IMG/VR virus record: IMGVR_UViG_3300045988_013110 | Coordinates: 1-23,439 of that record | Reading direction: 5' to 3' (one strand) | Length of the DNA stretch: 23,439 nt | Source: a virus | Taxonomy: Duplodnaviria > Heunggongvirae > Uroviricota > Caudoviricetes | Shown: positions 5,190 to 16,307 of the stretch, in pieces | Layout of the letters: the number at the start of each line of letters is the position of its first letter | Position numbering within the stretch: position 1 is the first letter of the stretch | Notes under the pieces: generated by a model | The model's input: only the letters and a program-made list of their open reading frames with translations | Databases searched by the model: none | What the model was told of the DNA's origin: nothing | Made by a program: the position numbers and the translations under genes

Positions 5190-5279
5190 TTACCTCGGTC
5201 TGTTACCGTTGGGGTAATAATTATGCTTATTTGGTTTGGTGTCAATAGATATGAGTTAAAAAAATTACCCGTAAGGTAA
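5190..5279. promoter_or_regulatory. OL-like operator pair plus half-site upstream of the leftward operon
   Basis: Perfect TTACC-N5-GGTAA at 5203-5217 and 5265-5279 (centres 62 bp apart), plus a TTACC half-site at 5190-5194. Confidence 0.55.
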
Positions 5280-5336: not shown

Positions 5337-5921
5337 TTATTGTTTGCTTTTTTCGTTCTGGTTGATGACAAATTCAATGTAACTTTCGATCTTTGCTTTC
5401 TCGGTTTCGGGTAACAATGCGTAGCGCGAGCGATCATAGTTGATGGTCGCAGGGTCGTGCGGGTGAATCAGTAATTCATAGCCGTGACGCCCGAATGCGG
5501 ATGCAACATTCTCCAGGGTGGAAATGGAAACGCTGACCTCATTGTTTAACAGGCGACTGATTGTCACCTGGGCGACGCCGGATGCGCGGTGAAGTTTTCC
5601 CTGCGTTGAAAGGTCGCGGCTTTCGCTCATCCAGCGTTCCAGGTTGTGAGCCGCCAGCTGACCAATGTCGCTTGGGCCGACAGGCTGAAAACCTTCCTGA
5701 GAAAGCGAGCGATCGATATCAAGCCAGTTACGGGGTTTATTGGCGGCAGCTTCAATTTTTCGCGCAACCTGGTCGCCGATAACCTTCTTGCCAAGAGCCC
5801 AGCGGTTTACCAGATTTGCCTGAGTTCCAAGTTTTTCTGCCATCCGCGTCTGAACACCATTGAATTCACGGTCGATCAAGTCGTTGAGATTTTGCCTGCG
5901 GACGTCCTGGATACTTTTCAT
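5337..5921 (-). CDS. prophage repressor (CI-like) with two HTH regions and no obvious S24 peptidase domain
   Basis: Two XRE-type HTH stretches (MAEKLGTQANLVNRWALGKK and ASGVAQVTISRLLNNEVSVSISTLENVA). No GDSM-type Ser/Lys autocleavage motif seen. Divergent from a Cro-like gene with operators in between. Confidence 0.7.
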   Translation of the reverse strand: MKSIQDVRRQNLNDLIDREFNGVQTRMAEKLGTQANLVNRWALGKKVIGDQVARKIEAAANKPRNWLDIDRSLSQEGFQPVGPSDIGQLAAHNLERWMSESRDLSTQGKLHRASGVAQVTISRLLNNEVSVSISTLENVASAFGRHGYELLIHPHDPATINYDRSRYALLPETEKAKIESYIEFVINQNEKSKQ

Positions 5922-6673: not shown

Positions 6674-7507
6674 ATGAGCAGACATGCAACAGATTGGGCC
6701 TGGGAGACAGATCCAGGTAGCTCATCATTAAAGCTCATACTGCTCTCGATGGCTGACAGAGCCGATGAATATAACCTCTGCTACCCCAGCATAGAACGCC
6801 TCGTTAAAGACACTTGCCTGAATAAAAAAACCGTGCAGGCCGGGCTTATATCGCTCATGAAAATGGGGCTTATTTCAGATACCGGAGAGAGAAAGGGAGC
6901 GACAAAAAGAGTGCGGGTTTTCTCTCTTAATATAACCAAAAACGGGAACATTAAAGGCAACCTAGAAGGGTGTAATGAACCCGAAAACGGTAATGTTCCC
7001 GAAAACGGGAATATACCCAAAAACGGGATGTTGAATGATCCCAAAAACGGGATGTTGAATGATCCCAAAAACGGGATCCAGAACCAGTCATATAACCAGT
7101 CATTTAACCAAGAGAGGGAGAGCAGGACAAAAACCGGGGATTCTGTGCCTCATGACCCCGGCGCAAACAACGCCGTGATGAATAACTTTGTTCCTCCTGG
7201 TGGGCCAGGGCAATTAGGCAAATTTGTCATGCATGAACAATGGCAGCCATCAGATGACTTTCTTCGGAAAAGCTCATTGCAGGGAATCTACCTGGACAGT
7301 CTGCCAACGGCACAGGAACTTGCAGAGTTCAGAATTTACTGGATGGCTGAGGGTAAGGCATACCATCAGGCACAGTGGGAGCAGAAGCTGGCAAGGCGCA
7401 TCCAGTTCTGTAGACAGAAATCAGGTGAAGTCAGAAAGAGCCTTGACTGGCATAACACTGACTGGATAGATGAGGTGTGGGATGAAATCAACTCCAGAAC
7501 TTCTTAA
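6674..7507 (+). CDS. replication initiation protein (HTH N-terminus, DnaT-like C-terminus) with embedded iterons
   Basis: N-terminus (WAWETDPGSSSLKLILLSMADRADEYNLCYPSIERLVKDTC) resembles HTH domains of phage replication initiators; the C-terminal region looks DnaT-like. An iteron array lies inside the gene, as ori does in lambda O. Confidence 0.7.
   Translation: MSRHATDWAWETDPGSSSLKLILLSMADRADEYNLCYPSIERLVKDTCLNKKTVQAGLISLMKMGLISDTGERKGATKRVRVFSLNITKNGNIKGNLEGCNEPENGNVPENGNIPKNGMLNDPKNGMLNDPKNGIQNQSYNQSFNQERESRTKTGDSVPHDPGANNAVMNNFVPPGGPGQLGKFVMHEQWQPSDDFLRKSSLQGIYLDSLPTAQELAEFRIYWMAEGKAYHQAQWEQKLARRIQFCRQKSGEVRKSLDWHNTDWIDEVWDEINSRTS
6935..7104. repeat. iteron array, candidate origin of replication
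   Basis: Six copies of core CC(C/A)(G/A)AAAACGG(G/T) starting near 6936, 6980, 6998, 7016, 7040 and 7064 (spacing 18, 18, 24, 24 bp), then AACCAGTCAT twice (7082-7103). Confidence 0.6.
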
Positions 7508-11058: not shown

Positions 11059-11066
11059 GCATGGTA

Positions 11067-11102
11067 CTATTACCACAACGGTAACTATTACCACGGTGGT
11101 TA
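11067..11102. promoter_or_regulatory. operator-like sites and direct repeat at the packaging-operon entry
   Basis: Perfect TTACC-ACAAC-GGTAA (11070-11084) and imperfect TTACC-ACGGT-GGTTA (11088-11102), within a 10-bp direct repeat CTATTACCAC (11067-11076 and 11085-11094), immediately before the TerS start codon. Confidence 0.45.
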
Positions 11103-11701
11103 TGATGCCTGCTGAACCTAAAACCTATAAACGCAAATCAACGCAATTTAAGCCACTAACAGCAATGCAGGAGGCTTATTGCCAGTCATACATCAAAACG
11201 CCTGAAAACCAGACTCAGGCTGCGATTAATGCAGGATTCTCCCCAAATACAGCGGCAGTTAAAGCCAGTGTCATGATGCGCGATGAACGCATTCAGAAAC
11301 GGATTGCCGAGTTGATGGAGGAGCGCAACAAACGAATGCGCGTCAGTGCTGATTACGTTCTCATGCGCCTGGTGGAGATCGACCAGATGGACGTGATTGA
11401 CATTCTCAACGACGATATGAGCATCAAGCCGGTCTCGGAATGGCCTAAGGTCTGGCGGCAGTACCTGACAGGTTTCGAACTGGCCGACATGTTCGAAGGC
11501 CGTGGAGACGAGAAAGAGCTGGTTGGCATCCTCAAAAAAATTAAATGGCCTGACAAGGTGAAGAACCTCGAACTGATTGGTAAGCACGTCGACGTCAACG
11601 CATTCAAAGAACGCCTGGATGTTAATGTGAATGTGACAATTGCTGATCGCATAGCGGCAGCCAGGAAGAGACTGAAAGAACGTCAGGATGGCAATCAGTG
11701 A
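11102..11701 (+). CDS. terminase small subunit
   Basis: Start set at ATG 11102 because the track start at 11024 is a TTG lying upstream of the terminator. HTH-like segment LTAMQEAYCQSYIKTPENQTQAAINAGFSPNTAAVKAS is typical of small terminase subunits. Confidence 0.8.
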   Translation: MMPAEPKTYKRKSTQFKPLTAMQEAYCQSYIKTPENQTQAAINAGFSPNTAAVKASVMMRDERIQKRIAELMEERNKRMRVSADYVLMRLVEIDQMDVIDILNDDMSIKPVSEWPKVWRQYLTGFELADMFEGRGDEKELVGILKKIKWPDKVKNLELIGKHVDVNAFKERLDVNVNVTIADRIAAARKRLKERQDGNQ

Positions 11702-13173
11702 CAGATACAGCGTTATCTCCTGAAGAGCAGTTAATCGAGGATATTGCAGGGTTCACTCACGATCCGCTTGGCTATGCCCTCTATGCGTTCCCATGGGGGG
11801 AAGAGGGGACTGAACTGGCACATGCCACCGGCCCACGTCAGTGGCAGGCTGATGCGTTCCGAGAGATACGTGATCACCTGCAGAATCCAGAGACGCGATA
11901 TCAGCCGCTTATGCTGGCACGTGCTTCTGGTCACGGTATTGGTAAATCCGCATTCATCTCAATGCTGATCAACTGGGGCATGTCCACTTGCGAGGATTGT
12001 AAGGTCGTGGTGACCGCCAACACCGACAACCAGCTACGAACGAAGACCTGGCCGGAAATTATCAAGTGGTCAAACCTTGCTATCACGAAAGACTGGTTTA
12101 CCTGTACCGCTACCGCGATGTACAGCAATGACCCTGGGCACGACAAGCGGTGGCGAGCTGACGCAATCCCCTGGTCTGAGCACAACACTGAGGCATTCGC
12201 CGGACTACACAACGAGCGTAAACGCATCATTGTGGTATTTGATGAAGCGTCGAACATTGCGGATCTGGTGTGGGAAGTTGCCGAGGGTGCGCTAACGGAC
12301 GAAGACACTGAGATTATCTGGGTGGCTTTCGGAAACCCTACACGTAACACCGGGCGTTTCCGTGAATGTTTCCGCAAATACAAACACCGCTGGAAAACTG
12401 CGCAGATTGACAGCAGGACGGTGGAAGGCACCAACAAACAGCAGTTGCAGAAATGGGTTGATGACTACGGGGAAGATAGCGACTTCGTTAAAATCCGTGT
12501 GCGTGGCATATTCCCTGATGCATCTGAATTGCAGTTTATCCCTACCGGTCTTACTGACGAGGCAATGAAACGGGTGGTAACCGCTGCGCAGGTTGCACAT
12601 GCTCCGGTGATAATCGGTGTTGACCCGGCATATTCAGGCGTTGATGACGCGGTGATATACCTGCGGCAGGGGCTACACAGTAAGGTGCTGTGGACTGGCA
12701 ACAAGACTACCGACGATCTGATTATGGCGAAGCGTATCGCTGACTTTGAAGACCAGTATCAGGCTGACGCGGTGTTCATCGACTTCGGTTACGGAACCGG
12801 TTTGAAGTCAATCGGTGACGGCTGGGGTCGTACATGGCAACTTGTTCCGTTCGGTGGCGCGTCTACTGACCCGCAGATGCTCAACAAGCGTGGGGAGATG
12901 TTCAACTCATGCAAGACATGGCTGAGGCTGGGCGGCATGCTGGATGACCAGGAAACAGCGGACGACCTGTCGGCGGCAGAGTACAAAGTTCGAGTGGACG
13001 GTAAAATCGTTATCGAACCGAAGGAAGATATCAAGGAGCGGCTTGGGCGTTCGCCGGGTAAAGGCGATGCGCTACTGCTGACGTTTGCTTTCCCGGTCTC
13101 GAAACGCATAAATATACCAGGACAGCAAAGCCAGCAGGGAAGGGCCATTACAGATTACGATCCCTATGCTTAA
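11698..13173 (+). CDS. terminase large subunit
   Basis: 491 aa; Walker A-like GHGIGKS; GTG start overlapping the TerS stop (GTGA). Confidence 0.9.
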   Translation: MTDTALSPEEQLIEDIAGFTHDPLGYALYAFPWGEEGTELAHATGPRQWQADAFREIRDHLQNPETRYQPLMLARASGHGIGKSAFISMLINWGMSTCEDCKVVVTANTDNQLRTKTWPEIIKWSNLAITKDWFTCTATAMYSNDPGHDKRWRADAIPWSEHNTEAFAGLHNERKRIIVVFDEASNIADLVWEVAEGALTDEDTEIIWVAFGNPTRNTGRFRECFRKYKHRWKTAQIDSRTVEGTNKQQLQKWVDDYGEDSDFVKIRVRGIFPDASELQFIPTGLTDEAMKRVVTAAQVAHAPVIIGVDPAYSGVDDAVIYLRQGLHSKVLWTGNKTTDDLIMAKRIADFEDQYQADAVFIDFGYGTGLKSIGDGWGRTWQLVPFGGASTDPQMLNKRGEMFNSCKTWLRLGGMLDDQETADDLSAAEYKVRVDGKIVIEPKEDIKERLGRSPGKGDALLLTFAFPVSKRINIPGQQSQQGRAITDYDPYA

Positions 13174-13221
13174 TCCGCTGCTGGGGATAATGTCGTTGAT
13201 ATCCTCTGATGAGGATAAAAT

Positions 13222-13250
13222 AAAGCCCGCCAAATGCGCGGGCTTTATTT
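13222..13250. terminator. bidirectional terminator between TerL and the reverse-strand gene
   Basis: Stem AAAGCCCGC / GCGGGCTTT followed by ATTTTT on the plus strand and a T-rich tract on the minus strand. Confidence 0.6.
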
Positions 13251-13258
13251 TTAAATAA

Positions 13259-13606
13259 TTATTTCTTGATAATATTTCCAGACATTGTGCTGGCGTTTCC
13301 ACCAACAGTTTCGCAGATTACATCTCCAGACATGGTGTTTACATTTCCCAATACATTGGAACAATGGACATCACCAGACATAGTTTTCACATAATGTGCA
13401 TCACCGCTTACAGTCACTGATCCATTTTCAATCTCAACACCTTCCACGCTTCCATTAATTGTTACGTTAATCTGTCCGTCAAGATTGCTATTTTTTTCGA
13501 CACCATCAACGATCACTTTTCCATTGTTAATCGTAATATGATGACCAGTGAAGTCTTCTCCGTTGACGCTAACGCTAGCACCACGTACGTTATTGATTTT
13601 AATCAT
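13259..13606 (-). CDS. reverse-strand accessory gene: Gly/Val/Asn-rich beta-helix repeat protein (bactofilin-like)
   Basis: 115 aa; repeated G-x-V/I pattern (ITINNGKVIVDGV..INVTINGSVEGVEIENGSVTVSGD..MSGDVHCSNVLGNVNTMSGDVICETVGGNASTMSGN). Only clear opposite-strand gene in the late region, bracketed by its own terminators. Confidence 0.6.
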   Translation of the reverse strand: MIKINNVRGASVSVNGEDFTGHHITINNGKVIVDGVEKNSNLDGQINVTINGSVEGVEIENGSVTVSGDAHYVKTMSGDVHCSNVLGNVNTMSGDVICETVGGNASTMSGNIIKK

Positions 13607-13714
13607 TATAAATCATCCTCTTTTTGAATCGAGATTAACCTCAGGAGATACTATGACATGTTTTTCATGTATGTCGTAATCTGCATCGATATCATAATTG
13701 TGACGTATCACGCC

Positions 13715-13739
13715 AAAAAAAATGCCCGGCGAACCGGGC
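13715..13739 (-). terminator. rho-independent terminator (minus strand)
   Basis: Stem GCCCGG / CCGGGC with loop CGAA; minus-strand T8 run follows. Confidence 0.6.
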
Positions 13740-13816
13740 GAACTGGAAGCAATGAGTTATGCCTTCCGTGGCTGTACTGGTTTACAGCATGAAGCCATCG
13801 CAATGGCGTCCTGCTG

Positions 13817-13859
13817 TAAAAAGGGCGGTGATAGTCCTTCAAGGGAAACCATCACCGCC
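13817..13859 (-). terminator. candidate terminator downstream of the tRNA
   Basis: 9-bp stem GGCGGTGAT / ATCACCGCC with an 18-nt loop, followed on the minus strand by CTTTTTA. The long loop lowers confidence. Confidence 0.4.
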
Positions 13860-13902
13860 AAGCCCCTGGAACTTCTGGCATCACGGTCCTTAGGCGTGAT
13901 TC

Positions 13903-13979
13903 TGGCGTGGCATGCAGGATTCGAACCTGCGACCAACCGCTTAGAAGGCGGTTGCTCTGTCCAACTGAGCTAATGCCAC
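13903..13979 (-). tRNA. tRNA-Arg (anticodon UCU)
   Basis: Hand-folded 77-nt cloverleaf with CCA: acceptor GTGGCAT/ATGCCAC, D-arm GCTC-AGTTGGACA-GAGC, anticodon stem ACCGC/GCGGT with loop CTTCTAA (anticodon TCT), T-arm GCAGG-TTCGAAT-CCTGC, discriminator G. Confidence 0.85.
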
Positions 13980-14301
13980 AACGCTGAGAGCACTTAGCCT
14001 GTTAAGGCGCCACACTTTGTCGCGGCTCCATAAATGCTCTCATCGTTGTACCCTCGTCTCTTCCGAGGCGTCACACCGAATCGCCGGGATGGTGAATCCC
14101 CGTGCGCGGAATAAAACCGCTCGACTTGCACATTCCGGCTACCTGGTTCGTTTGCCACAGCCAGGGAGGGTGCCCCTTAAACGCATCCAGACCGCTATCG
14201 GCGCATGTGCCATACGCCGTACTGCTCAAAATAAAAGCTCACTCCACCTGTTCAATTTAACGACAAGCCAGTCAGGTTAGTAACCGGAATGAACTCTTTG
14301 G

Positions 14302-14316
14302 TTACCTGAAAGGTAA
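14302..14316. promoter_or_regulatory. operator-like site upstream of the virion operon
   Basis: Perfect TTACC-TGAAA-GGTAA; a GGTAA half-site at 14374-14378 sits at the same 62-bp centre offset. Confidence 0.45.
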
Positions 14317-14406
14317 TAATTCGCGCGTTAAATGTCAACTGTCTACGATAAATAAATCATATGTGGTTAAATTGGTAATAATTTAATTGCGTACGGAGTC
14401 ATTGAT

Positions 14407-14613
14407 ATGTGCATGGGTAGCTCACCATCAGTGCCTGCAACACCAGAAGTTCAGGCAGCACCACAGGAGCAGGATGCCGCCGTTGTTGATGCCCGCGACG
14501 AAGAAACTCGTCGCCGTCGCGCTGCTGCTGGTCGTAGTTCTACGCTGCTTACCGGTTCTCAGGGCGACACATCAACTGCTAATACCAGCGGTAAAACGCT
14601 GCTTGGTCAGTAA
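14407..14613 (+). CDS. hypothetical low-complexity protein (68 aa)
   Basis: GGAG Shine-Dalgarno; its initiation region CGGAGTCATTGATATG is nearly identical to that of the portal gene (CGGAGTCATTGAAATG). Confidence 0.4.
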   Translation: MCMGSSPSVPATPEVQAAPQEQDAAVVDARDEETRRRRAAAGRSSTLLTGSQGDTSTANTSGKTLLGQ

Positions 14614-14627
14614 CCGGAGTCATTGAA

Positions 14628-16307
14628 ATGGCGGAAACAACTAAAGAGCGATTGAACAAACAGTTCGCACAACTTGAAAGCGAGCGTCAGTCGTTCGAGC
14701 CGCACTGGCGCGAGTTGAGTGATTACATCAACCCGCGTGGTTCCCGCTTTCTGACTTCTGAGGTTAACCGTAACGATCGACGCAATACACGCATTATTGA
14801 TTCGACCGGGACTATGGCGGCGCGCACTCTCGCCAGCGGCATGATGTCAGGCATCACAAGCCCCGCGCGTCCGTGGTTTCGCCTGGCTACGCCAGATCCT
14901 GAAATGATGGATTATGGCCCTGTTAAGTTGTGGCTTGAGGCGGTGCAGAACCGCATGAACGATATGTTCAATAAGTCGAATCTCTATCAGTCGCTGCCGC
15001 AGTTATACGGAAGCCTCGGCACATACAGCACTGGTGCAATGGCAGTGCTGGAGGATGACGAGGACATCATTCGCACAATGCCATTCCCGATAGGCAGTTA
15101 CTACCTGGCTAACTCACCTCGTGGCAGTGTGGACACCTGTTTTCGCAAGTTCTCTATGACTGTTCGTCAGCTTGTTCAGGAGTTCGGGCTAAATAACGTC
15201 AGCGAATCCGTAAAAAGCATGTGGGAAAGCGGAACCTACGAGAAGTGGATTGAAGTGATGCATTCGGTTTACCCGAACATTGACCGCGATACATCGAAGC
15301 TGGATAGCAAGAACAAGCCATTCAAATCGGTTTATTACGAGGTTGGTGGCGATAACGACAAGTTGTTGCGTGAGTCCGGATTCGATGAGTTTCCAATTAT
15401 GGCTCCGCGCTGGGAAGTTAACGGCGAAGATGTTTATGGATCATCATGCCCGGGTATGCTGGCGCTTGGACCTGTTAAGGCATTGCAGCTTCTCCAGAAG
15501 CGCAAGTCGCAGTTGATTGATAAAGCCACCAATCCGCCGATGGTTGCTCCGAATTCCCTCAAGAATCAGCGTGCCTCCCTTCTTCCTGGCGACATCACGT
15601 ATATCGATCAGATTACTGGTCAGGATGGTTTCAGGCCTGCTTATCTGGTTAACCCCAGTACAGCAGATTTGGTGGCAGACATTCAGGACACCCGTCAAAT
15701 CATTAACAGCGCCTACTTTGTCGATCTGTTCATGATGTTGCAGAACATCAATACCCGCTCGATGCCTGTTGAAGCGGTGATCGAAATGAAAGAAGAAAAA
15801 CTTCTGATGTTGGGGCCGGTTCTGGAGCGTCTGAACGACGAATGTCTTAATCCTCTCATTGACCGCGCTTTCTCGATGATGGTGCGTAAAAACATGCTGC
15901 CGCCACCGCCTGACGCGATGGAAGGTATGCCCCTGAAGGTCGAATACATTTCCGTCATGGCTCAGGCGCAGAAGTCTATCGGCCTGTCCAGTCTGGCGTC
16001 TACGGTCAACTTCATTGGTCAACTTGCGCAAGCGAAACCAGAAGCTCTCGACAAACTCAACGTTGATCAGGCGATCGATGCATTCGCTGATATGTCCGGA
16101 GTGTCTCCAACCGTCATTGTTCCGCAGGAACAGGTTGAGCAGGCTCGCCAGCAACGGGCACAGCAACAACAGCAGCAACAAATGATGGCGATGGGGATGG
16201 CGGCGGCACAGGGTGCCAAGACGCTAAGCGAAGCTAAAACTTCGGATCCGAGTGTTTTGTCAGCTATGGCGAATGCAGTTAGTGGTCAGGGTGGGCAATC
16301 ACAATGA
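14628..16307 (+). CDS. portal / head-to-tail connector (podovirus, T7 gp8-like)
   Basis: 559 aa. N-terminus and Gln/Ala/Met-rich C-terminus (QQQQQQQMMAMGMAAAQGA...) resemble the T7 connector by recollection. Confidence 0.8.
   Translation: MAETTKERLNKQFAQLESERQSFEPHWRELSDYINPRGSRFLTSEVNRNDRRNTRIIDSTGTMAARTLASGMMSGITSPARPWFRLATPDPEMMDYGPVKLWLEAVQNRMNDMFNKSNLYQSLPQLYGSLGTYSTGAMAVLEDDEDIIRTMPFPIGSYYLANSPRGSVDTCFRKFSMTVRQLVQEFGLNNVSESVKSMWESGTYEKWIEVMHSVYPNIDRDTSKLDSKNKPFKSVYYEVGGDNDKLLRESGFDEFPIMAPRWEVNGEDVYGSSCPGMLALGPVKALQLLQKRKSQLIDKATNPPMVAPNSLKNQRASLLPGDITYIDQITGQDGFRPAYLVNPSTADLVADIQDTRQIINSAYFVDLFMMLQNINTRSMPVEAVIEMKEEKLLMLGPVLERLNDECLNPLIDRAFSMMVRKNMLPPPPDAMEGMPLKVEYISVMAQAQKSIGLSSLASTVNFIGQLAQAKPEALDKLNVDQAIDAFADMSGVSPTVIVPQEQVEQARQQRAQQQQQQQMMAMGMAAAQGAKTLSEAKTSDPSVLSAMANAVSGQGGQSQ

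Follow-up and report, generated by a model that had tools for sequence, protein, structure and literature searches.

The locus ahead of the portal gene raises the question of what its operator copy and repeated elements control, and of whether the similarity between the repeats marks a local duplication or a shared translational control element. The window, i.e., the whole 23,439-nt stretch analysed, is an epsilon15-like (Uetakevirus) prophage, a temperate podovirus of the phiV10/epsilon15 type, with 98.8% identity to phiV10 and 98.7% identity to TL-2011b. Its clade and that of Tyrion are sisters, sharing 86% identity in the 5′ region of the portal gene, as against ~75% to all others. The interval under study is an intergenic control region (Table 1). 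On one side lies a leftward unit, consisting of a structured RNA, a tRNA-Arg, and possibly the minus-strand gene 13259-13606, whereas the other side is occupied by the rightward head operon, which contains gp3, the portal gene, and the genes onward. In every lineage, all genes lying between terL and gp3 are carried on the minus strand. The explanation favored here has five parts, namely a repressor operator, a leftward promoter, the gene gp3, a copied leader, and a chance match between the two GGTYAGTAACCGGA elements; taken together, these parts probably give the right account. Neither the operator nor the small gene is spurious, and both are of a kind already known. The finding as a whole is ordinary and its value lies mainly in a cleaner annotation, while the neighboring structured RNA is more interesting.

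Table 1. Sequence features of the control region and its surroundings (window coordinates).
Feature	Coordinates	Strand	Basis or context
Bidirectional terminator-like hairpin	13222-13252	none	Read from sequence, no call by the scan; between terL (+) and gene 13259-13606 (-)
Two terminator-like hairpins after the tRNA	13724-13859	-	Scan; between the tRNA and gene 13259-13606
tRNA-Arg (UCU)	13903-13979	-	ARAGORN; Rfam tRNA, 73.3 bits; immediately downstream of the RNA element
Conserved structured RNA, unannotated, no Rfam family	14031-14227	-	nhmmer and blastn matches; downstream of the candidate leftward promoter
Upstream copy GGTTAGTAACCGGA	14275-14288	+	In unconstrained polymorphic spacer
Operator O1, candidate Rep-binding dyad TTACC-TGAAA-GGTAA	14302-14316	none	Exact dyad, homologous to an annotated site
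Candidate -10, TACCTT (TAnnnT), inside O1	14310-14315	-	17 nt from the -35
Candidate -35, TTGACA	14333-14338	-	Conserved at a fixed distance from O1
Palindrome TTAAATT-GGTAAT-AATTTAA (20 bp, perfect)	14367-14386	none	Encloses the distal half-site; unique in the window
Distal GGTAATAATT, right half-site plus TAATT, left half missing	14374-14383	none	Exact repeat of 14312-14321
gp3 initiation region, CGGAG-TCATTGAT-ATG	14394-14409	+	Orthologous to the AT-rich gp3 leaders elsewhere
gp3 gene, 68 aa, PHROG 831, invariant Met-Cys N-terminus	14407-14613	+	Profile match and codon constraint
Downstream copy GGTCAGTAACCGGA	14605-14618	+	Last two gp3 codons (Gly-Gln), TAA stop, start of the portal SD
Portal initiation region, CGGAG-TCATTGAA-ATG	14615-14630	+	gp3-type leader replacing the GC-rich portal leader of other clades
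Portal, T7 gp8-type head-to-tail connector	14628-16307	+	PF12236, E=2.4e-187; PHROG 332

The perfect operator that had been predicted at 14302-14316 is present there as an exact TTACCTGAAAGGTAA. This copy, O1, is one of seven perfect TTACC-N5-GGTAA copies in the window, and when up to three mismatches are allowed, the pattern matches 15 times against 0.45 expected. O1 aligns with the feature annotated as a 'repressor' protein_bind site in epsilon15 (GenBank AY150271, 2931-2947), its positional homologue upstream of gp3, and the homology of the window to both epsilon15 and Tyrion begins exactly at 14302. The half-sites are almost invariant in 79 close relatives, with a single T-to-C change (at 14302), and they are also kept across lineages. 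The window encodes a repressor on the minus strand (5337-5921), flanked by operators at 5265 and 5977, that matches SPC32H Rep (PDB 5D50) with E=3.5e-42 over residues 1-190. SPC32H Rep is reported to bind palindromic sites as a tetramer, in which the DNA-binding pairs are drawn from different dimers (PMC9638917, describing Kim et al. 2016). The likeness to the epsilon15 and SPC32H systems thus extends to the same 15-bp dyad (the epsilon15 version is TTACCTAAAAGGTAA), to the position of the site upstream of gp3, to a 62-bp pairing of sites at 32554/32616 in epsilon15, and to a repressor homologous to that of the SPC32H Rep/Ant pair. On these comparative grounds, the dyad at 14302-14316 is very probably a genuine operator, recognized by the predicted prophage repressor, a homologue of SPC32H Rep. 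Unlike the epsilon15 record, those of phiV10 and TL-2011b contain the operator site without annotation, and neither the ZX5 paper nor the 2025 structural paper on epsilon15 mentions operator sites or gp3. The putative leftward promoter, the exact repeat of GGTAATAATT, and the apparent additional constraint on the N5 spacer, which are discussed below, are likewise absent from the annotations examined; we infer them here.

A right half-site had been noted 62 bp beyond O1. It is real and stronger than claimed, being an exact 10-mer repeat, GGTAATAATT, at 14312-14321 and 14374-14383. There is no second full dyad at 14364-14378, where only GGTAA and the adjoining TAATT match and the left half reads TGGTT. 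The 62-bp spacing is identical to that of the full operator pairs 5203/5265 and 8302/8364, and the distal GGTAATAATT is conserved in all Enterobacteriaceae lineages examined. It lies with the palindrome in a 48-nt block, 14346-14393, that hardly varies even between lineages with ~25% divergence in the portal gene and is far more conserved than coding sequence. In one lineage (L225), one arm of the palindrome is mutated and GGTAATAATT is retained. O1 and GGTAATAATT would reproduce the layout of the early promoters of the phage, in which a promoter is enclosed by two sites at a distance of 62 bp, and a single Rep tetramer might bridge the two, given the reported binding of Rep as a tetramer.

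A comparable arrangement is that of the lambda-type OL/OR operators, where a repressor oligomer touches two sites some distance apart, on either side of a promoter or overlapping it, cooperatively and with DNA looping. As in that system, the spacing is in whole helical turns, 62 bp corresponding to ~6 turns. In contrast to lambda, the repressor fold and the oligomer, here a Rep tetramer, are different, the window operators are also scattered before late and structural genes, and the second site beside O1 is a half-site only.

The original prediction placed these sites ahead of the virion module. Their position is as described, but the promoter-like elements conserved over the operator face leftward, away from the virion genes. 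A minus-strand TTGACA-17-TACCYT arrangement that overlaps the operator is conserved across lineages. Its -35 candidate, TGTCAA on the plus strand, stands exactly 16 nt past O1 in 46 of the 49 distinct haplotypes and matches the consensus at 6/6 positions, with a spacer of 17 nt. The -10 candidate, TACCTT, matches at 3/6 positions with A2 and T6 present, and the whole falls below the threshold of the promoter scan. Within the N5 spacer of O1, all 49/49 haplotypes have A at position 4 (14310) and either A or G at position 5, so that the -10 reads TACCYT, whereas the other window operators vary at both positions. The layout around O1 is analogous to the 5203 operator region of the window and to the left-operator region of epsilon15, and the same TGTCAAT motif appears to be the best -35 candidate for a leftward early promoter at the window 5203 and epsilon15 32555 operators. 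Because of this conservation, and on that basis only, the promoter overlapped by O1 most likely fires leftward. It would consist of TTGACA at 14338-14333, the 17-nt spacer, and TACCTT at 14315-14310, and repressor bound at O1 would silence the RNA/tRNA unit. This likely orientation alters what the repressor is thought to control here. The sole minus-strand promoter called by the scan, TAGACA-18-AATTAT, was set aside in favor of the conserved TTGACA, as the hypervariable triplet 14340-14342 falls within its -35.

The first reading of the locus, which is implicit in the epsilon15 annotation too, was that O1 and the half-site at +62 mainly repress a rightward promoter of the head operon; block 14346-14393 would be that promoter. 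O1 does lie 90 nt upstream of gp3, and the block shows the exceptional conservation noted above. The distal GGTAATAATT would then overlap a possible extended -10, TGgTTAAAT or AATAAT, and the terS operator at 11070 directly follows a -10-like TGgTACTAT. Moreover, given the terminator-like hairpin past terL, whose equivalent is annotated as a terminator in the phiV10 record, expression of the head operon would call for antitermination or for a promoter in this region. Yet, no plus-strand sigma-70 promoter was recognized in the region by the promoter scan, no conserved -35 is found at a suitable distance, and the constrained positions in and beside O1 fit a minus-strand promoter. As the main function of the sites, rightward repression deserves to be taken seriously, though on balance it is doubtful. 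It is compatible with a leftward promoter, since the two could be divergent, and control of the head operon by the repressor through O1 is possible.

If the promoter fires leftward, as preferred here, the RNA element would be its first transcript. This element of ~190 nt contains at least six helices and a candidate pseudoknot. For its 28 pairs, the paired fraction is 98.3%, as compared with 31-42% after sliding, with compensatory changes at eight pairs, and its assignment to the minus strand follows from 55 G-U cells against one A-C cell. In Rfam 15, only the tRNA reaches its gathering score, and nothing credible corresponds to the element at E values up to 5. A degenerate tRNA or a known sRNA was likewise considered as the leader and rejected, as ARAGORN and Rfam return only the one tRNA. 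The same RNA class is common to unrelated temperate phages, including epsilon15-like, lambdoid, and P1/P7/D6-like phages, a Lastavirus, and a Stenotrophomonas siphovirus, and roughly one in three complete E. coli genomes carries it without annotation. Its usual site is just downstream of a repressor gene or an early promoter; in lambdoid phages it is immediately 3′ of the repressor gene. This location would suit a leader that acts in cis, such as a processing module or a factor-independent antiterminator, and it would equally suit a stable RNA made upon induction. Like putL of HK022, the element would lie just downstream of a repressor-controlled promoter of the early type. However, put RNAs are ~70 nt long with two stem-loops (PMC9378689), far from the size and the number of helices found here, and nhmmer detects no copy of the element in the 24-30 kb region of HK022. 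The element also resembles the stable RNAs of phage tRNA clusters in that it adjoins a tRNA gene in both the window and P1. It is quite conceivable, if short of probable, that the operator is the switch for a leftward repressor-controlled promoter whose first product is a previously undescribed ~190-nt RNA (14227-14031, minus strand). The likely orientation of the operator also draws attention to this abundant, unannotated structured RNA beside it, a candidate for study as a phage regulatory RNA of a new type.

On the rightward side, the 68-aa ORF is present as described, at 14407-14613. A comparison with related phages had been proposed for it, and this yielded 146 homologues, nearly all of 66-72 aa. 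Residues 1-68 match PHROG 831 on profile positions 3-70 of 70 (E=2.4e-36). Substitutions at codon positions 1/2/3 number 2/0/31 relative to Tyrion and 6/3/33 relative to epsilon15. A profile search of genome contigs returned only seven loci. At the loci with an identifiable portal start, gp3 adjoins the portal gene. On this comparative evidence, the ORF is the conserved gp3 gene, under strong purifying selection, and it can be annotated as a real, selected gene, presumably translated from its own GGAG-N8-ATG leader. In position, gp3 is comparable to the gene of T7 gp6.7 (DUF5476), a small virion protein that is ejected and whose gene precedes that of the T7 portal, as both are small genes shortly upstream of a T7-type portal. 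Both proteins begin with Met-Cys and have a Pro/Lys/Ser-rich start followed by a V-x-x-AP-x-x-Q stretch. Homology between them is not established, however: hhalign gives E=0.012 with a probability of 3.5%, covering the N-terminal 24 columns only. No Pfam family matches gp3 at E up to 10, and a PDB sequence search with the gp3 profile returns nothing beyond low-complexity ribosomal-protein matches. A role as a small virion protein, by analogy with T7 gp6.7, is conceivable for gp3.

Near-identical initiation regions had been reported for gp3 and the portal gene. Indeed, 15/16 positions are identical and the regions are anchored on the two start codons; CGGAGTCATTGAAATG is at 14615-14630 as given, while CGGAGTCATTGATATG occupies 14394-14409 rather than starting at 14393. 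The similarity is clearly non-random. It is confined, however, to the phiV10 and Tyrion clades. At least ten lineages outside these clades keep both genes and lack the repeat, among them epsilon15, SPN9TCW, BUCT554, two Klebsiella phages, Kluyvera, Superficieibacter, and several IMG/VR and E. coli lineages. There, the gp3 and portal leaders have in common only the SD, a similar spacing, and the ATG. The gp3 leaders of other clades are AT-rich (e.g., CTATTGCT, TTAATGCT, and TCATTGAA), whereas their portal spacers are mostly GC-rich (TAGGCAGAG, ACCTGAGAG, CGCGCAGAG, and CAGGCGGAT). Tyrion carries ACGGAGTCATTGTTATG and ACGGAGTCATTGTCATG, and three lineages (L118, L171, and L193) have GGAGTCATTGAAATG before gp3 and not before the portal gene. 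These comparisons suggest that before the phiV10-like and Tyrion-like clades split from their common ancestor, the 14-nt spacer between the gp3 stop and the portal ATG was overwritten by a copy of the 14 nt preceding the gp3 ATG. Either selection in favor of an efficient leader or recurrent conversion would since have preserved the copy. The short flanking identity available for such copying, only 5-6 nt, counts against it, and the event rests on two sister clades, i.e., effectively on one event. The proposed local duplication therefore holds only in the narrow sense that two initiation regions are related by copying. As far as these alignments indicate, the copied leader is a trait of one lineage and not a family-wide regulatory element. 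It represents a small, datable case in which sequence from the initiation region of one gene has been transferred ectopically to that of its neighbor.

The other half of the original suggestion was a shared translational control element, with one regulator, protein or RNA, binding both blocks and thereby co-regulating gp3 and the portal gene. Apart from the near-identity of the blocks at two start codons, this reading can draw on TCATTG, which is the same in all four phiV10/Tyrion leader copies, although 31/68 gp3 third positions (~46%) differ between the clades, and on position -2, which co-varies (A/A in the window, T/T in Tyrion; a single observation). Against it, the identity is missing in every other clade with both genes, an outcome that the original suggestion had itself named as refuting; the window contains no reverse-complement copy of the block at up to three mismatches, and none of its other genes has the block. 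The RNA structure prediction that had been proposed shows no excess either, the two leaders folding no better than shuffled sequences (z = +1.44 and -1.20); a 391-nt fold (z = -3.1) does not bring the repeats into pairing, and gp3-internal helices and the palindrome hairpin dominate it. A shared regulator is therefore unlikely. The targets of T4 RegA are translational operators common to several mRNAs. The present case is alike in that different genes of a phage resemble each other in their initiation regions, but it differs in being confined to one sub-lineage and to two genes, with no regulator known, and the comparative data count against a conserved operator here.

The repeats could also be a coincidence arising from the shared need for an SD and a start codon. 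An SD-N7-9-ATG layout is indeed found at gp3 in all lineages and at the portal gene in most, and the GGTYAGTAACCGGA pair is only marginal, its local-alignment score being reached by 2.7% of shuffles. However, eight further identical spacer positions in two clades go beyond SD and ATG. For 14-mer pairs with at most one mismatch within 500 nt, shuffles give 1.15 per window against 12 in the window itself, both repeats included, the genuine non-chance pairs being tandem repeats. For the two repeats jointly, coincidence is highly improbable; it is disfavored for the initiation block and preferred for the GGTYAGTAACCGGA pair.

The sequences of that pair are present as reported, with coordinates off by one (14275 and 14605, not 14276 and 14606). 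In near-identical prophages, GGTTAGTAACCGGA is polymorphic at 14280 (G/A, 49:30) and 14286 (G/A/T, 63:15:1), and 14285 is also variable. It is missing from every other lineage examined, including Tyrion, epsilon15, and Klebsiella. The downstream GGTCAGTAA, being coding sequence, has been kept in most lineages. The upstream GGTTAGTAACCGGA thus most likely matches the downstream copy by chance, to judge from its pattern of variation. A more elaborate possibility is that the GGTYAGTAACCGGA repeat and the initiation blocks together are what remains of a single local tandem duplication or insertion by which the gp3 module arose or was moved, as both motifs appear upstream in an unchanged order, separated by 105 nt, and are fused downstream. 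Such an event is very unlikely. O1 and the conserved block are ancestral to all lineages, the upstream GGTTAGTAACCGGA is specific to phiV10, and in the lineages of Proteus and Morganella, too, gp3 adjoins the portal gene (no portal start was obtained at the Arsenophonus locus). Moreover, the 320-nt upstream region aligns with gp3 and the portal start at the 14-mer alone. Indeed, GGTTAGTAACCGGA was rejected as a relic of the gp3 3′ end or of a duplicated module, since Smith-Waterman alignment of 13980-14301 with 14394-14700 returns only this 14-mer (p ~0.03).

Two further features of the spacer were considered. Complementarity of 14280-14291 to the RNA core at 14131-14142 was dismissed, as chance alone would give ~0.6 such pairs in 750 nt and the match is not conserved elsewhere. 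The zone 14275-14345 varies in excess of 4-fold sites; DGR-like targeted hypermutation was rejected for it, the changes affecting all four bases and being mostly transitions.

The DNA of the window belongs to a temperate podovirus within the epsilon15 group (genus Uetakevirus). Over 13200–15200, it shares 98.7% identity with Escherichia phage TL-2011b, 98.8% with phiV10, and approximately 78–85% with Tyrion, SPN1S/SPC32H, and epsilon15. The arrangement from the operator at 14302–14316 (O1) to the portal gene does exist but is nothing unusual: the operator is of a known type, the small gene is a known hypothetical gene, and the copied leader is lineage-specific. The approximately 430 nt between the tRNA-Arg gene and the 68-aa ORF contain no credible ORF. 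The plus-strand ORF 13722–13973 (PhiV10p04 in the phiV10 annotation) lies antisense to tRNA-Arg and is probably spurious. A 19-nt inverted repeat (arms 13978–13996 and 14031–14049, 89% complementary, 34 nt apart) directly borders the tRNA-Arg gene at its 5′ end, and a minus-strand precursor would form a long hairpin there.

Features between the large terminase and portal genes
Feature	Coordinates	Strand	Remarks
Large terminase (terL)	11698–13173	+	
Bidirectional terminator-like hairpin	13222–13252		between terL and convergent gene 13259–13606; 9-bp stem, 7-nt loop, T-runs on both strands
PHROG 3163 gene	13259–13606	−	
Two terminator-like hairpins	13724–13859	−	3′ of tRNA-Arg
tRNA-Arg(UCU)	13903–13979	−	
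Structured RNA, ~190 nt	14031–14227	−	covariation; unannotated
Conserved 48-nt block	14346–14393		ahead of gp3; near-invariant across lineages with portals 25% different
Perfect 20-bp palindrome TTAAATT-GGTAAT-AATTTAA	14367–14386		inside the 48-nt block; single occurrence in the window
68-aa ORF (gp3)	14407–14613	+	
T7-type portal	14628–16307	+	

As predicted, the operator TTACCTGAAAGGTAA is matched exactly at O1. Seven perfect TTACC-N5-GGTAA dyads are present in the window (5203, 5265, 5977, 8302, 8364, 11070, and 14302), and the pattern with up to three mismatches occurs 15 times versus 0.45 expected. The right half-site proposed at a 62-bp offset holds in its spacing and right half and is in fact an exact 10-mer, GGTAATAATT, at 14312 and 14374. 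The same spacing separates the full operator pairs 5203/5265 and 8302/8364, as well as 32554/32616 in epsilon15. In the GenBank record of epsilon15, seven sites carry a “repressor” binding annotation; that at 2931–2947 (ATTACCTAAAAGGTAAT) lies before gp3 at the position homologous to O1. The minus-strand gene at 5337–5921 encodes a 194-aa homologue of Rep, the SPC32H repressor (PDB 5D50, E = 3.5e-42); Rep binds palindromic sites as a tetramer according to a later paper’s account of Kim et al. 2016 (PMC9638917). By its sequence and position, O1 is already known in kind, as an operator of the epsilon15/SPC32H repressor type. Elsewhere, the operator before the small-terminase gene (11059–11084; epsilon15 counterpart, site 12–27) lies directly 3′ of an extended −10-like TGgTACTAT and a terminator-like hairpin, a layout suggesting that the packaging genes may be under direct repressor control.

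The 68-aa ORF corresponds to gp3 of epsilon15. Its product matches PHROG 831 over the full length (E = 2.4e-36) and no Pfam family; 146 homologues occur in prophages of Enterobacterales, almost all of them 66–72 aa long. Met1-Cys2, an RRRR motif, and the C-terminal KTLLG(Q) are invariant or nearly so in the alignment, and substitutions are strongly concentrated at third codon positions (2/0/31 by position versus Tyrion, 6/3/33 versus epsilon15). The location ahead of a T7-type portal and the Met-Cys start are reminiscent of T7 gp6.7 (MCFSPK...), but a profile comparison between the two was not significant. The Met-Cys start (14407–14412) is invariant among the homologues; its Cys could be exposed or modified after Met removal.

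All the repeated sequences described around gp3 are present, with coordinates off by one for three of the four copies. Across the window, only 12 pairs of 14-mers match with at most 1 mismatch within 500 nt, versus 1.15 in shuffles, and the two direct repeats belong to this set. The 20 nt ahead of the gp3 and portal start codons were compared in approximately 210 related loci and further lineages. Near-identity of the two leaders is limited to the phiV10-like clade (gp3 ACGGAGTCATTGATATG, portal CCGGAGTCATTGAAATG) and the Tyrion-like clade (ACGGAGTCATTGTTATG; ACGGAGTCATTGTCATG), which are sister clades with portal 5′ regions 86% identical to each other versus approximately 75% to all others. 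In the other clades, the leaders have in common only the SD, a similar spacing, and the ATG: gp3 spacers are AT-rich and mutually related (CTATTGCT, TTAATGCT, TTATTGAA, TCATTGAA), and portal spacers are mostly GC-rich and likewise mutually related (TAGGCAGAG, ACCTGAGAG, CGCGCAGAG, CAGGCGGAT). In three further lineages (L118, L171, and L193), GGAGTCATTGAAATG, i.e., the portal leader of the window, stands ahead of gp3 only. By parsimony, this distribution points to a single overwrite: the 14-nt intergenic leader of the portal gene would have been replaced once by a gp3-type leader in the ancestor of the phiV10-like and Tyrion-like clades. The original prediction of a local duplication holds in this narrow sense, as an inferred gp3-to-portal copying of the leader, and is confined to the two sister clades. 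A shared translational control element fails as a family-wide feature, since relatives keep both genes without near-identity. TCATTG is unchanged in all four leader copies, 31 of 68 gp3 third positions have diverged between the clades, and leader position −2 co-varies (A/A versus T/T); these two clades hint that selection or repeated conversion may maintain the copy. The folds of both leaders are unremarkable, and the initiation block has no complementary partner within the window. In Klebsiella phage ST512-KPC3phi13.3, a divergent 67-aa gp3 (1894–2103) stops 3 nt before the portal ATG (TAATCCATG) and a separate SD is missing, which marks the portal leader as labile in evolution.

The other repeat, GGTYAGTAACCGGA (14275–14288 and 14605–14618), is marginal by itself, its score being reached in 2.7% of shuffles, and local alignment found no similarity between the copies outside the 14-mer. 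The downstream copy comprises the gp3 Gly-Gln-stop and the start of the portal SD, and is conserved because of these elements. The upstream copy is missing from Tyrion, epsilon15, Klebsiella phages, and all other lineages compared, and the spacer in which it lies is polymorphic even where prophages share an identical gp3 protein (14280, G/A 49:30; 14286, G/A/T 63:15:1). We read the upstream copy as apparently fortuitous.

Phylogenetic footprinting of the region ahead of gp3 in approximately 20 lineages gave, in order, TTACC-N5-GGTAA, TAAT(T/A) in most lineages, ~11 variable nt, TGTCAA(T/C), 3 variable nt, CTACG-N-(T/A)AAATAA, TAT(G/A)TGGTTAAATTGGTAATAATTTAA(T/A), 5–7 variable nt, and SD (GGAG or GAGG)-N7–8-ATG. 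On the minus strand, TGTCAA reads TTGACA, separated by exactly 17 nt from TACC(T/C)T, which covers the operator right half and two spacer positions. Of 49 distinct haplotypes, 46 carry this TTGACA box, and spacer position 14310, the would-be −10 T6, is A in all 49; the corresponding position varies in the other operators of the window. TGTCAAT recurs between the operators 5203/5265 and in the left-operator region of epsilon15, where it may be read as the −35 of a leftward early promoter. These features, the minus-strand orientation of everything between terL and gp3 in all lineages, and the minus-strand RNA described below argue for a leftward Rep-controlled promoter at O1, with O1 proximal and the GGTAATAATT half-site at 14374–14383 distal; this direction, too, we infer. 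The candidate −10 matches only 3/6 of the consensus, and the scan tool gave no call for it. A rightward promoter ahead of gp3 may also exist, in line with the terminator-like hairpin 3′ of terL (itself given no call by the scan tool) and with the 48-nt block and its palindrome, conserved far above coding sequence, but the scan recognized no sigma-70-like promoter on the plus strand. The block might bind a further regulator, act as an UP-like element, or form a 5′-UTR hairpin. Around O1, 41 unconstrained positions (14275–14345) form a hot spot with pi = 0.15 versus 0.047 at 4-fold degenerate sites in 79 near-identical sequences, and three or more alleles occur at 24% of free spacer sites versus 6.5% of 4-fold sites. 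Amid this, the operator half-sites, TAATAATT, and GCGTTAAATGTCAA are near-invariant, with rare single variants only.

To the left of O1, the structured RNA has no Rfam match, and copies 72–82% identical occur in unannotated intergenic DNA of several unrelated phage groups: just 3′ of the repressor gene (cI) in lambdoid phages; in P1-group phages (P1, P7, D6, SJ46, and others), between trnI and ban in P1 and beside a dnaB/ban homologue in SJ46; and in a Lastavirus and a Stenotrophomonas phage. Among complete E. coli genomes, 1840 of 5426 contain the element, and none of the 40 records listed has an annotated feature at the matching site; epsilon15 retains only its 5′ third. Six helices find support in an alignment of 15 sequences (98.3% of cells paired versus 31–42% in slid controls), with compensatory changes at 8 pairs. 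The alignment contains 55 G-U cells versus one A-C cell, indicating that the RNA strand is the minus strand, and adjoining genes run on this strand in every context examined. A single event, CACC:GGUG to AACC:GGUU, in a loop-to-downstream pairing suggests a possible pseudoknot. The HK022-type put RNA is far smaller (PMC9378689), and an nhmmer search of the 24–30 kb stretch of HK022 detected no relative. As the element follows repressor-controlled promoters and precedes terminators, a putative role as a cis-acting leader is a reasonable lead. Short near-identical direct repeats also lie within coding regions (6929–7065, 13320/13368, 16768/16828, and 369/459), including a cluster of 18–129-nt periodicities at 6929–7065 and, within gene 13259–13606 on the minus strand, a 48-nt repeat.
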